Of a DNA stretch of 64,000 nucleotides, positions 3,920 to 45,349 are shown one piece after another. The notes under the pieces were generated by a model that did no database searches, was not told the origin of the DNA, and was given only the letters and a program-made list of their open reading frames with translations. The DNA comes from Escherichia coli (GTDB lineage: Bacteria; Pseudomonadota; Gammaproteobacteria; Enterobacterales; Enterobacteriaceae), in NCBI RefSeq assembly GCF_050920415.1, contig NZ_CP169309.1. One strand, given 5' to 3'. The first letter of the stretch is position 1, and the number at the start of each line of letters is the position of its first letter. The translations under genes were made by a program, and so were the position numbers.

Positions 3920-5165
3920 CGCGCTGCAACAGTGGCATCACTTGTTTGAAGCCGAGGGTGCAAAACGCTCCCCGCAAGCACAGCAGCATTTACAACAATT
4001 GCTGCGTACCGGACTGCCGACACGTAAACATGAAAACTGGAAATATACGCCGCTGGAAGGGCTGACCAATAGCCAGTTTGTCAGTATTGCGGGGGAGATA
4101 TCCCCACAGCAGCGTGATGCCTTAGCGTTAACGTTAGACGCCGTGCGGCTGGTGTTTGTCGATGGACGTTACGTGCCCGCGCTGAGCGATGCAACTGAAG
4201 GCAGCGGATATGAAGTGAGCATTAACGATGACCGCCAGGGGTTACCCGACGCTATTCAGACGGAAGTGTTTCTGCATTTGACGGAAAGCCTGGCGCAAAG
4301 CGTGACGCATATCGCCGTGAAGCGCGGTCAACGACCGGCAAAGCCATTGCTGTTAATGCATATTACCCAGGGCGTGGCAGGTGAAGAGGTGAACACTGCC
4401 CATTACCGACATCATCTGGATCTGGCGGAAGGTGCCGAAGCGACGGTGATCGAACATTTTGTCAGCCTTAATGATGCTCGTCATTTCACCGGAGCGCGCT
4501 TTACCATCAATGTCGCAGCGAACGCCCACTTGCAGCATATCAAGCTGGCGTTTGAAAACCCGGTCAGTCACCACTTTGCCCATAACGATTTGTTGCTGGC
4601 TGACGATGCTACCGCATTTAGCCACAGTTTCCTGCTTGGTGGCGCAGTGTTACGACACAACACCAGTACGCAACTCAATGGCGAAAACAGCACGCTGCGG
4701 ATCAATAGTCTGGTGATGCCGGTGAAAAACGAGGTGTGTGATACCCGTACCTGGCTGGAACACAATAAAGGTTTTTGTAACAGCCGACAGTTGCACAAAA
4801 CTATCGTCAGCGATAAAGGCCGCGCGGTATTTAACGGTTTGATCAACGTCGCGCAGCACGCCATCAAAACGGATGGTCAGATGACCAACAATAATCTGCT
4901 GATGGGCAAACTGGCAGAAGTGGATACGAAACCGCAGCTGGAAATCTATGCAGATGATGTGAAATGCAGCCACGGCGCGACGGTGGGGCGTATTGATGAT
5001 GAACAGATGTTCTATCTGCGCTCGCGTGGGATCAATCAGCAGGATGCCCAGCAGATGATCATTTACGCCTTTGCTGCCGAACTGACGGAAGCACTGCGTG
5101 ATGAGGGGCTTAAACAGCAGGTGCTGGCCCGAATCGGTCAACGACTGCCAGGAGGTGCAAGATGA
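3894..5165 (+). CDS. sufD: Fe-S cluster assembly protein SufD
   Basis: 423 aa; start overlaps the sufC 3' end by 26 nt. Confidence 0.93.
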
Positions 5166-18691: not shown

Positions 18692-18997
18692 TCAGGCGAG
18701 TTTTGCCTGATTGATTTGACTCAGTGGCTCATTGACATCGAAAACTTTGGCGACAACTTCCTCAACGCCGAGATTTTTCAGTCGGGCAGTATGTTTTTCC
18801 AGATAGGCAAGGGCGCTTTTTTCATCAGTGAAAAGGTAGATCCCACCGGCTTCGTGGTTCTTTTCACTTTCTGTCCATACCTTCCACAGAAAACCAGGTT
18901 CCTGATTAATTGACTCAGCAAGCGGTTTAAGCTGCTCAGCCATTGCGTCGCCAAATGGGCCATTAAAAGCAAAATGAAGTTGTAACAAAGTTGCCAT
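18692..18997 (-). CDS. ydhR: putative monooxygenase-like protein YdhR
   Basis: 101-aa ORF recognised as YdhR. Confidence 0.85.
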
Positions 18998-19104
18998 AGC
19001 GATTCTCCTTCTGATAACGCATACGAAGACAGTGTAAATCTTTTAACGTATTGGATACAGAGAAGAAACAGAGGGAAAAAGGAGAAGACCAGATTAAGAA
19101 AATC

Positions 19105-19181
19105 TGGTGCGTCCGAGTGGACTCGAACCACCGACCCCCACCATGTCAAGGTGGTGCTCTAACCAACTGAGCTACGGACGC
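19105..19181 (-). tRNA. valW: tRNA-Val (anticodon GAC), downstream copy
   Basis: 77-nt cloverleaf with 3' CCA; anticodon loop CTTGACATG; valV/valW naming assigned by transcription order only. Confidence 0.9.
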
Positions 19182-19185
19182 AGGA

Positions 19186-19262
19186 TGGTGCGTTCAATTG
19201 GACTCGAACCAACGACCCCCACCATGTCAAGGTGGTGCTCTAACCAACTGAGCTATGAACGC
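19186..19262 (-). tRNA. valV: tRNA-Val (anticodon GAC), upstream copy
   Basis: 77 nt; same anticodon; differs from the neighbour by compensatory changes in the acceptor and T stems. Confidence 0.9.
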
Positions 19263-27852: not shown

Positions 27853-27896
27853 TCCATTTCACTCCAGACCCTAACTTCAGCTCCTGCAAAATCGCA

Positions 27897-27912
27897 AGGT
27901 AAACGTTTGCCT
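27897..27912. promoter_or_regulatory. PUR box (aggtaaacgtttgcct) in the purR leader
   Basis: Near-perfect 16-bp palindrome with AAACGTTT core, about 45 bp upstream of the purR start codon. Confidence 0.5.
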
Positions 27913-28150
27913 TTACACACCTTACGCACAACAAAAATGTTGCGGTACGCCGGAAAAACGACACGGAGCGTCAGGAAGGGGTCAATGGCCAGTACGCAAA
28001 TAGTGTAAGCGTGGAATTTTGGCCGATCTTGACGAAAAGGGGAAGTGGTAAAAACACTTATCATTATAAATGACGGGAGATTTTTTCATCACAGTGTGTA
28101 AAAATGCGTAATATCACTTTTTGTGTGGTAATAAAAAAGGAGAAAACTTG

Positions 28151-28240
28151 ATGAGCACCGACCTTAAATTTTCACTGGTAACAACAATTATCGTCCTCGG
28201 TTTGATCGTGGCCGTGGGTTTGACTGCCGCGCTGCACTGA
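28151..28240 (+). CDS. ynhF: small hydrophobic protein YnhF (29 aa)
   Basis: ATG with SD aaggagaaaa; encodes MSTDLKFSLVTTIIVLGLIVAVGLTAALH, a single transmembrane segment; below the ORF-track size cutoff. Confidence 0.7.
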   Translation: MSTDLKFSLVTTIIVLGLIVAVGLTAALH

Positions 28241-28405
28241 TTTCCTCTCGAGGGAGCGCGTTCTCCCTCGCATCTCCTTCCTGTTTGTTAGCAAAATGGC
28301 AAAAGTGTTTTCTCTTTTTGTTATTTTCATTTTTTTGTGATTGCTGTCATGCTTTCGCCACTTTAATGAATATCGCGTAATGACGCGAAGAGGTGGAGAT
28401 AAGGC

Positions 28406-41559: not shown

Positions 41560-43572
41560 TTAAGAGGCCAGCGTACCTTGCGGCGGTGCTTGCTCAAGTT
41601 GCGAAAGCGAGCAGTACAGCCGCCAGACAATTGCCGCCAGGTCCTGGGCGGCAGGTTGATGATGACGGGCAAGGCTGTCGCAAATCCGCTGTAATTCTGC
41701 AAGTGTGGCCGCCAGTGATTTTTGCTGAACGCCACGCTCACTCATCACTCCACGTAACAATGAAATACAGTTATCCCGTACTCGCGATAACGGATCGGAA
41801 CGCGATTCCCATTCGCGCAATTGCCAGACAACATGAGAACAGTTCAACAACACCACCCCCCAGCGTAATAACCAACGGCGAGCCAGCGCATCCTGGCTGT
41901 TACTTAACTGACTGACGTGATGATAAGTGAGTGATTCAAAATCGCTTTCACTCAGTGTTGGATGGCGGCTTAGTTGGTCGACAAAATCCCGGCGCAGTGC
42001 GCGAATATGACGACGGCTTTTACGAGCATCCGACCCAGGTCGCAGAATGGCGAACGCTAGCCACGCCAGCGCTACGCCAACAATTTTTGCCAGATTATCA
42101 TTAAGAAAATCAGCGAAATCATACACCGGAGGATTAGTGACAGCGATAAACGACCCCATAAATACAATCAGTTGTCCCCAAAGCGCGGCAAATTTGGGCA
42201 TCTGCAATTTAAGAAGCTGCATTGTCGCCAGTAGTGGGAAGAGAAACAGTAAAAATTGCCACAGATCGCTAATCTGAACCATCAGGCCAAATTTGACCGC
42301 AAAGCTAAATAGCGAAAGTAACACTAGCGTGCGCATTAGCAGTGACAAGGACTTAAACGGTGCCGCGACGGCGGAGTAGAGTACGCAGCTAATTGCGGCC
42401 AGCGTTAATGCATTGGCACCGGCATCCCATTGTGAAGCGATACTCCATGCGCCAATTATCATCAATGTACAAAATGTTCGTAGTCCGCTCCACATAGCTT
42501 CGGCGTTATCGGTATGACGTGCCAGGCCGGATGTCCGTGGGAGTTTGGCATGATCATCTACGCCGCTTTGCAGACGATGTAATTCCTGACTGCTTTGCAG
42601 ATAAAGATGGCAAAAATAGCGTAGTCGCTGCCAGAAGGCGACGTGCCGGTAGTCGGCGACGTTGGTCGGGCGTAGCGGGGCAATAATACGTGCGACGGTG
42701 TAAACATCTGTTTGCGAACTGGCGAGCGCCGTCAGCAACTGTTCGAGAATTTCTCGTGTGGCACCTGGCGGTGAGGGCCAGTTGAGCAACATACGTCGCA
42801 GGCTGGAAATGACGCTGGTCATACGTAATTGCTGGTGGAGCAGCGCATTAAGGCGCGCGTTTTGCTGGCGAAAACGATAGTGGCTCCAGAAAGCCTGGAT
42901 ACGCAGCAAATTCATGGTCAGTATCTGCCCAATCACCCCCTCATGTGCTGCACGAATGGCATCGGTTGTTTCAGGCTGCCAGAGTAAACTGGCATGTTCC
43001 AGCAATCGGGCGTGCATGTTTTTCAATGCGGTTAAAAGGGCTGTAGCATCGGAACTGCTCGGCAGGATCATCATCATCATGCCGCCGCACAAAATACCGA
43101 CAATCACCTCGCAAACGCGCGCCTGAGCGATATCCCACAGCTGGCTGGCCTCAGTAATATTAACCATCGGAAAGGCGATGATGGCAGCCGTGTAGCCCGC
43201 CAGTTGAAATGCATACGCGACGTTATTCGTGAAGTGCGCACAGGCCCAGGTACAAAAGCCAATCCATGCTGACATACTCAATAGAAAAAACCACGGCTCG
43301 TTGAGCGTATGTCCGGCAAGAAGCAATGCCGCGATGGCTCCCAGCAAACTACCCGCGATGCGTCCGAGGCTTTTGCTGATCACACCGCCAACGGTGGGAA
43401 AGCTAACCACGGCAGCCGAGGTCATCGCCCAATAGGGCTCATCAAGATTCAAATAATAGGCAATCGTCAGCGCCAGACACATGGCAATGGTATTGCGTAA
43501 CGCATAACGCCATTGCGCCAGCGTGGCCCTGAACCAGGGCAAATTGCGCAAGGACCATGACGATGCACTCAT
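41560..43572 (-). CDS. ydhK: FUSC-family (AaeB-like) membrane protein YdhK
   Basis: 670 aa; polytopic. Confidence 0.88.
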
Positions 43573-44429
43573 TATTGACCTACGGCAATGCTACAGGTGG
43601 TGCCCGACACCAGCGTGACATCGCCTGGGACTTTATCCAGCGCAAAGCGGACCGGAACACGTTGGGCGAGGCGAACCCAGGGGACGTTAGGTTTCACATC
43701 CGGAATAAGGCTTGAGTCACTTTCAACGCTCTGATCATAAATCGCCCGACCGATACTGGAAACGTGACCCTGTAACGTTTTGTTATCACTATAGAGGGTA
43801 ATTTGTGCTGGTGCACCTTCGCGGATATGGCGCAACTTGGTTTCTTCAAAATAACCAATGACGTAAAACGAGTGGCTATCGACAAGAGCAAACAGCGGTT
43901 TCCCGGTGTCAGCGTAATCGCCGATGCGGGTAGTAAGATTAGTCACCCATCCGCTCACCGGGGCGCGAATTTCCGTTTGCGCCAGTTGCCATTGTGCCTG
44001 TTTCAACGTCGCCTGTGCGGCATCAACACTGGCCTGCATCGCTTTAACATTGAGGTTAGCGGTATCGAGTTCTTCGGCAGAAATAAAATTTTGTGAGAGA
44101 TGACGACGACGATTCGCTTCGTTATTGGCTTTTGCGAGGTCAGATTGCGCTTTCGCCAGCTGAGCCTGTGCGTTCAGCTCGGCGATCTGAAAGGGCGTTT
44201 TATCGATCGTGAGCAGAAGATCCCCCGCGTTAACCAGCTGGTTGTCTTTTATATTCAGCTCAACAATACGTCCCGACACCTGTGGGGTGATAGAAACCTG
44301 TTCTGCGCGTATTTTCCCGTCGCGTGTCCACGGAGATTGCATGTAATAATTCCACAGCCACCATCCGGCAAGAACCGCAACTACCGCTACAATGATTGTT
44401 GAGAAATACTTAATTGTTTTAATTGACAT
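43572..44429 (-). CDS. ydhJ: HlyD-family membrane fusion protein YdhJ
   Basis: 285 aa from ATG at 44429 (MSIKTIKYF...); single N-terminal transmembrane segment plus coiled coil. Confidence 0.88.
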
Positions 44430-44431
44430 AG

Positions 44432-44668
44432 TTACCACGCAATCAGTATTGCCAGGGAAAGGCAAACGCAAATCGCAAACAGCGATAAATCCATTAACAA
44501 GGGATGCCAGATGTCACCGGCGTAGATCCAGCCACGAAGCAGGCGGTGTACGACAAGCCAGATGACGAATCCAAACGCGAAGGCTTTGAAAAACGGAGGA
44601 AAGTAGACGGACGCACCGAACACCAGATCTTGTAAGGGCAATCCTGTTGCATTGAGCATAAACTTCAC
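44432..44668 (-). CDS. ydhI: small membrane protein YdhI (DUF1656, AaeX-like)
   Basis: 78 aa; two hydrophobic segments. Confidence 0.85.
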
Positions 44669-44840
44669 AAAGTAGATTCCTTTACGACCGAATATATTGC
44701 GTTAGATTAATAAATATTCTTTAAGTGCGAAAAATTTACGCGCAATTTCTGAAAAGTATGTCTGACGGTAACCAAATGCAGCAATACATTTGTTTTAGCA
44801 ATACAATTGCTGCACACTATTCTAAAAGCCGCATAATATC

Positions 44841-44852
44841 TTAGCAAGCTAA
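44841..44852. promoter_or_regulatory. SlyA-binding palindrome TTAGCAAGCTAA
   Basis: Exact match to the reported SlyA consensus, about 10 bp upstream of slyA, in the slyA-ydhI divergent region. Confidence 0.6.
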
Positions 44853-44862
44853 TTATAAGGAG

Positions 44863-45303
44863 ATGAAATTGGAATCGCCACTAGGTTCTGATCTGGCACG
44901 GTTGGTGCGCATATGGCGTGCTCTGATAGACCATCGCCTGAAACCGCTGGAGTTAACACAAACCCATTGGGTCACGTTACACAATATCCATCAGTTACCT
45001 CCAGACCAGTCGCAAATTCAACTGGCAAAAGCGATTGGCATCGAGCAGCCATCACTGGTCCGTACTCTGGACCAACTGGAAGAAAAAGGGTTAATTTCGC
45101 GTCAAACTTGTGCCAGCGATCGTCGGGCTAAACGTATTAAACTGACGGAAAAGGCAGAGCCGCTGATCAGCGAAATGGAAGCTGTTATTAACAAAACCCG
45201 CGCGGAAATTTTACATGGCATCTCCGCAGAGGAACTGGAACAACTGATTAAGCTCATCGCAAAACTTGAGCATAATATCATTGAGTTACAGGCCAAAGGG
45301 TGA
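44863..45303 (+). CDS. slyA: MarR-family transcriptional regulator SlyA
   Basis: 146-aa ORF from ATG at 44863; the annotated start may instead be the TTG at 44869 (144 aa). Confidence 0.9.
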
Positions 45304-45314
45304 AATAAAGGGGG

Positions 45315-45340
45315 CGTGTGGTCAGTAACCTGACCACACG
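45315..45340. terminator. hairpin between convergent slyA and slyB
   Basis: 11-bp stem cgtgtggtcag-taac-ctgaccacacg. Confidence 0.5.
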
Positions 45341-45349
45341 CAAACTTAT

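Follow-up and report, generated by a model that had tools for sequence, protein, structure and literature searches.

The 64-kb window analyzed here, a stretch of Escherichia coli DNA, carries at 41.5–45.9 kb the genes sodC, ydhK, ydhJ, ydhI, slyA and slyB, which keep the order and orientation that they have on the E. coli chromosome. This region is very probably the core-genome slyA–ydhIJK locus of E. coli, that is, a pump operon paralogous to AaeXAB which shares with the regulator gene slyA a spacer bound by SlyA. The locus, its binding site, its control by SlyA and the homology to AaeXAB are all published, and their recovery is a rediscovery of known biology. What is new concerns the 12-mer TTAGCAAGCTAA, which matches the SlyA consensus exactly: of 80 Enterobacteriaceae species compared, 77 have it 28 nt ahead of the slyA start, and it is kept in three species that have lost ydhIJK.

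Genes of the locus and kinship to AaeXAB

The gene coordinates are those of open reading frames (ORFs) that agree with the RefSeq annotation of strains MFDS1022581 and K-12. On the minus strand, ydhK (41560–43572) encodes a FUSC-family inner-membrane transporter subunit of 670 amino acids (aa), listed in RefSeq as 'FUSC family protein'; ydhJ (43572–44429, 285 aa) a periplasmic adaptor of the HlyD type with a single membrane anchor at its N terminus; and ydhI (44432–44668, 78 aa, GTG start) a DUF1656 protein with two hydrophobic helices. The annotated start of ydhJ is the ATG at 44429 and not the TTG at 44471 that opens a longer ORF. On the plus strand, slyA (44869–45303, TTG start) encodes a MarR-family regulator of 144 aa. 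Both the ORFs and RefSeq thus place ydhIJK divergent from slyA, as an earlier note on this DNA had described; its span of 43572–45303 takes in ydhJ, ydhI and slyA but leaves out ydhK. Because the stop of ydhJ and the start of ydhK overlap by 1 nt, and ydhI and ydhJ are only 2 nt apart, the three appear to form a single operon with translational coupling. A Shine-Dalgarno (SD) sequence for ydhI, AAAGGA (44678–44683, minus strand), can be read 9 nt ahead of the GTG; the corresponding block ATCCTTT is kept across genera in the spacer alignment, and the GTG start itself in 76 of 79 species loci.

When complete E. coli genomes were searched by megablast, 5425 of the 5426 matched the segment 41500–45400. 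Strain MFDS1022581 has it with 100% identity, and most of the other genomes with about 98.9%. Since only three of the 5426 genomes reach at least 99% identity over this 3.9 kb, the source strain belongs to a sparsely sampled lineage. MFDS1022581 itself was isolated from animal-source food in South Korea.

The pump proteins fall into three known families. YdhI matches Pfam DUF1656 (PF07869, E 2e-14), and its two hydrophobic segments (residues 21–39 and 58–76) bear out its earlier description as a small two-helix membrane protein. YdhJ matches the Pfam models HlyD_3, HlyD_D23 and Biotin_lipoyl_2 and has a single hydrophobic segment at residues 8–26, while YdhK matches FUSC (PF04632, E 1.4e-140) over profile positions 1–658 of 660 and has two hydrophobic membrane regions, one in its N-terminal and one in its C-terminal half. 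These are the features of an AaeXAB-type (FUSC/PET) tripartite system: a FUSC subunit, a HlyD-type adaptor encoded immediately upstream of it, and a DUF1656 protein encoded first. Judged by sequence, the inner-membrane FUSC subunit YdhK, the membrane-anchored adaptor YdhJ and the small membrane protein YdhI would make up one pump.

AaeXAB (YhcRQP), an E. coli pump that exports aromatic carboxylic acids such as p-hydroxybenzoate, has the same order of DUF1656 protein, HlyD adaptor and FUSC transporter, and likewise a divergent regulator. The regulators differ in kind: that of ydhIJK is the MarR-type SlyA, that of AaeXAB the transcriptional activator AaeR, which is of the LysR type. In direct pairwise BLASTP comparisons with aaeXAB from K-12, YdhI is 33% identical to AaeX (E 1e-5), YdhJ 41% to AaeA (E 5e-68) and YdhK 24% to AaeB (E 6e-27). 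The AaeXAB architecture proposed in the earlier note is therefore borne out by gene order, sequence identity, Pfam families and divergent regulators alike. The best NCBIfam model for YdhJ is AaeA, and that for YdhK is AaeB, yet the scores of 243 and 121 bits remain below the equivalog cutoffs of 400 and 870, and YdhI does not match the NCBIfam AaeX equivalog model at all. The true AaeX, AaeA and AaeB pass their own models with 133, 609 and 1219 bits. Because all three Ydh proteins stay under the equivalog cutoffs, YdhIJK is a paralog of AaeXAB rather than a second copy or an ortholog. Homology of ydhIJK to AaeAB has been stated before (Will 2025, PMC12506092).

A search of the PDB with the single YdhK sequence returned no related solved structure. 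With a profile of 14 sequences, weak matches were obtained to the plant ALMT malate channels 7vq3 and 9jtw (E ~1.5e-4) and 7w6k (E 3e-3), over a stretch of about 140 residues within the N-terminal membrane domain. Plant anion channels of the ALMT/QUAC type are the sole solved structures detectably related to YdhK, and the substrates of these channels are organic carboxylates; unlike the proposed pump, they are eukaryotic channels without an adaptor partner, and the similarity is very weak. The match would agree with an organic anion as substrate, but no more than that should be read into it. As neither sequence nor profile search finds a closer solved relative, the FUSC fold appears to be structurally uncharacterized.

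The slyA–ydhI spacer and the SlyA consensus

The regulator is SlyA. It matches the NCBIfam equivalog NF002926 with 278.9 bits against a cutoff of 120 (residues 1–143 of 144) and Pfam MarR with E 7e-17; its PDB relatives are 3q5f and 3deu, the Salmonella SlyA structure 3q5f being matched with E 3e-80. From the SD sequence AAGGAG (44857–44862, plus strand), which is invariant across species, the spacing is 6 nt to the TTG at 44869 but 0 nt to an ATG at 44863, so the sequence alone favors the rare TTG start. The earlier note had begun slyA at this ATG, giving an ORF of 146 aa that is two residues too long; the TTG is annotated in RefSeq, and the UUG start of slyA has been shown experimentally to limit the SlyA level (McVicker 2011, PMC3173223). 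The spacer between slyA and ydhI, given there as 195 bp, accordingly measures 200 bp to the supported TTG, or 194 bp to the ATG. It has a GC content of 32%, compared with 50.5% for the window.

The 12-mer occupies 44841–44852 and ends 4 nt before the slyA SD sequence. It occurs only once in the window. Base composition predicts 0.007 exact matches for the window and 2.3e-5 for 200 bp. It had been called an exact SlyA-consensus palindrome: the consensus match is indeed exact, but the palindrome is not perfect, for the reverse complement is TTAGCTTGCTAA, so that two 5-bp arms flank a non-symmetric AA center. The exactness of the match is, moreover, a largely circular argument here because of how the consensus was derived; the footprinting was reportedly done on the Salmonella slyA promoter itself. 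That the consensus is based on footprinting and limited SELEX (systematic evolution of ligands by exponential enrichment) is stated in Curran 2017 (PMC5797941), where, in the passage citing it, TTAGCAAGCTAA is credited to Stapleton 2002.

Two further candidate SlyA sites lie in the spacer, each agreeing with the consensus at 9 of 12 positions. One is TTAGATTAATAA at 44702–44713, of the minimal operator form TTAN6TAA, 34 nt upstream of the ydhI GTG; among the genera aligned it is confined to Escherichia. The other, TTAGCAATACAA at 44795–44806, overlaps the inverted repeat AGCAAT/ATTGCT. TTAGCAATACAA is also enclosed, within the conserved slyA upstream block, by the arms of a perfect 9-nt inverted repeat (44777–44814), TGCAGCAAT / ATTGCTGCA, which stand 20 nt apart. 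A search of the spacer against Rfam for an RNA element gave only noise below threshold.

The window differs from the K-12 spacer by a single G/A change at 44756, outside all three candidate sites. Because the spacers are otherwise equal, the electrophoretic mobility shift assay (EMSA) and the site table published for K-12 apply to the window. In that assay, E. coli SlyA binds the 200-bp K-12 slyA–ydhI spacer with an apparent Kd of ~50–100 nM, and the table places TTAGCAAGCTAA 22 bp and TTAGATTAATAA 161 bp upstream of K-12 slyA (Curran 2017, PMC5797941); both positions agree with the window when counted from the TTG.

For the conservation analysis, the slyA locus was taken from 80 Enterobacteriaceae species (L003–L082); in 77 of these, slyA and ydhIJK are linked. 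Of the three species in which the exact 12-mer is not found at -28, one has it at -27 and two have variants matching at 11 of 12 positions. A block from about -85 to +12 of the slyA start (window 44784–44880) is near-invariant in the 80 species, synonymous positions included, whereas the ydhI-proximal ~100 bp of the spacer are free to vary; this division into a conserved block and a variable half was also reported by Will 2019 (PMC6401476). Since the whole block is near-invariant, the 12-mer is not specially conserved within it. The three loci without ydhIJK (L039 at 4880–5000, L045 and L081), from Intestinirhabdus alba, Kosakonia oryziphila and a soil metagenome-assembled genome, retain the conserved block upstream of slyA and, with it, the exact 12-mer. 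Because the 12-mer persists without ydhIJK, we infer that it is probably first of all slyA's own operator or control region. The ydhI-proximal half of the spacer (window 44669–44768) is most AT-rich in Escherichia, with 30–34% GC compared with a median of 41% over 79 loci.

SlyA control and the operator of ydhI

That ydhIJK is a SlyA-controlled efflux system, as the earlier note suggested, is supported throughout by the literature, in which the checks it proposed (SlyA binding, SlyA-dependent ydhI expression and the phenotype of a ydhIJK mutant) have largely been carried out already. Besides the binding to the K-12 spacer, SlyA of Salmonella represses ydhI ~19-fold and slyA ~5-fold in vitro, and salicylate relieves this repression; Salmonella ydhIJK mutants grow late on fusaric acid, while slyA mutants grow better (Will 2019, PMC6401476). 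Repression of ydhIJK by SlyA was also seen by RNA sequencing in Salmonella (Will 2025, PMC12506092), and according to a preprint, loss of the SlyA ortholog KvrA in Klebsiella raises YdhJ 45- to >100-fold. SlyA binds other aromatic carboxylates besides salicylate. The locus studied in K-12 and Salmonella Typhimurium in these works (Curran 2017, Will 2019, Will 2025) is the same as ours; genes, order and orientation match K-12, and apart from the one spacer polymorphism nothing of substance sets the window apart from it.

The arrangement resembles classical pairs of a MarR-type repressor and a pump. The gene for a winged-helix dimer stands back to back with an efflux operon, a pseudo-palindromic operator lies in the shared spacer, and aromatic carboxylates release SlyA from DNA (PMC6401476, PMC12506092). 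In contrast to such pairs, SlyA is mainly a pleiotropic counter-silencer of H-NS; it has repeatedly lost its linkage to the pump (PMC6401476), in our dataset at three of 80 loci; and the sign of slyA autoregulation differs between E. coli and Salmonella.

The only match to the sigma-70 consensus in the spacer is a predicted promoter directed toward ydhI (44819–44847, minus strand), with the -35 hexamer TTGCTA at 44847–44842, a 17-nt spacer, the -10 hexamer TAGAAT at 44824–44819 and a predicted start at ~44812. Its -35 hexamer lies inside the 12-mer. The same promoter-like match is present in Salmonella diarizonae, and TATTCTA, which covers the -10 hexamer, is kept in 68 of 80 loci. Toward slyA, a -10-like hexamer CATAAT can be read at 44832–44837 (plus strand), where 56 of the 80 species have TATAAT; with this hexamer, the slyA transcript start would fall inside the 12-mer. 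Conservation could not separate the ydhI-directed promoter from slyA's own, since the whole 85 bp are near-invariant and are kept without ydhIJK.

SlyA, a MarR-type dimer, binds the AT-rich 200-bp spacer with the 12-mer as its best site, which would coincide with the slyA transcript start or follow it closely and which stands beside the slyA ribosome-binding site. The 12-mer may also occlude the promoter toward ydhI, for which its reverse strand supplies the -35-like TTGCTA; if this promoter is real, one dimer would block it and at the same time sit on the slyA start region. In that case, SlyA without a ligand would repress the pump, and its inducers would be aromatic acids. In its most specific form, this model makes 44841–44852 a single position-invariant operator for two fully overlapping divergent promoters, supplying the -35 of ydhI and covering the +1 of slyA, while the genus-specific variable half of the spacer decides between repression, as in Salmonella and Klebsiella, and H-NS counter-silencing, as in AT-rich Escherichia. 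We regard this form of the model as distinctly unlikely.

Several points weigh against a SlyA-repressed aromatic-acid pump at this locus. Overproduction of SlyA in K-12 raised ydhIJK 2.2-fold, and deletion of slyA brought no significant change (Curran 2017, PMC5797941). Autoregulation of slyA is reported as positive in E. coli, in contrast to Salmonella. The SlyA site of Salmonella that responds to salicylate, close to the mapped -35 of ydhI, is a 75% match to the consensus and not the exact 12-mer (Will 2019, PMC6401476). Because the conserved block is invariant even where ydhIJK is absent, its conservation says nothing about the control of ydhI. Lastly, the evidence on the substrate is confined to the growth delay of a Salmonella ydhIJK mutant with a single compound, fusaric acid.

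One could ask whether the 12-mer is simply a functionless match in an AT-rich spacer. Loose forms of the motif are common, as TTAN6TAA has 20 occurrences in the window, and sequences within two mismatches of the motif are no more frequent than in shuffled sequences. A chance origin was nevertheless rejected, and its probability is next to nil, given the small number of exact matches expected per 200 bp, the position of the 12-mer, which is invariant in 77 of the 80 species, and the published binding of SlyA to the fragment (PMC5797941). A more serious contender holds that the 12-mer is only slyA's own operator or an element of its 5' leader, and that ydhIJK is governed by weaker, genus-specific sites, here 44702–44713 and/or 44795–44806. 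Its retention at -28 where ydhIJK is lost fits this view, as do the 75%-match operator at the Salmonella ydhI -35 and the further site that is listed for E. coli, 161 bp upstream of slyA (PMC5797941). In two Salmonella loci the only site with a 75% match is TTGGTAAGCAAA at -104, and the E. coli segment aligned to it shares only 6 of the 12 consensus positions; E. coli thus has no second operator of the Salmonella type in that segment. Most genera, however, have no second site matching at least 9 of 12 positions in the variable half, yet YdhJ is strongly de-repressed in Klebsiella, and the only sigma-70 match facing ydhI has its -35 in the 12-mer. To a 12-mer serving slyA alone we give somewhat less than an even chance.

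The sign of regulation invites another explanation, namely that SlyA acts on ydhIJK of E. coli mainly as an H-NS counter-silencer with net activation, unlike in Salmonella and Klebsiella. The rise of ydhIJK on SlyA overproduction, the flagging of ydhIJK as H-NS-associated in K-12 and the positive autoregulation of slyA point in this direction. So does the ydhI-proximal half of the spacer, which is the most AT-rich of the 79 loci in Escherichia and may have to do with the association with H-NS as well as with the reversed sign of control by SlyA. The effect is small, though, and has been observed with slyA in multicopy only; in the Klebsiella preprint, the E. coli operon is cited as a direct target of repression by SlyA; and the slyA-proximal block of promoter and operator is identical between genera. 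We therefore consider net activation rather unlikely. A further alternative concerns the pump itself, for which a clear function is not established and the physiological substrate is unidentified (Will 2025, PMC12506092): YdhIJK could serve an endogenous organic anion, as a channel or relief valve, and not be a pump for drugs or xenobiotics, with the fusaric-acid phenotype as a side activity. The same authors argue that the primary substrate is probably an endogenous compound, and a paper on AaeAB in their reference list raises in its title the question of 'a metabolic relief valve' for that pump. Among solved structures, the ALMT malate channels come closest to YdhK, but this similarity is weak and confined to part of the N-terminal membrane domain, and no endogenous substrate is known. 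An endogenous anion as the proper substrate is, in our view, doubtful.

Significance and neighboring features

As a discovery the locus is of little weight, and the questions it leaves are already recognized in the literature (PMC12506092). Its remaining value lies in the physiological export substrate, the role of the DUF1656 protein, the operator of ydhI in E. coli and the fold of the FUSC subunit. The puzzle is that SlyA control differs in sign between E. coli and Salmonella despite an identical block of operator and promoter. Such questions bear on how enteric bacteria couple the sensing of aromatic acids to efflux and to virulence regulation.

In a transposon screen of uropathogenic E. 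coli in systemic infection, ydhK appears twice among the candidate fitness genes, with ~10-fold effects (PMC3855560). Between the convergent genes slyA and slyB, a hairpin (45314–45341) with a 12-bp stem containing eight G-C pairs scores as terminator-like on either strand. Elsewhere in the window, Rfam matches at gathering level comprise the small RNA rydB (917–977), the antisense RNA HPnc0260 (18981–19143) and STnc550 (27853–28243), and Rfam further identifies two tRNAs on the minus strand, at 19108–19181 and 19189–19262.

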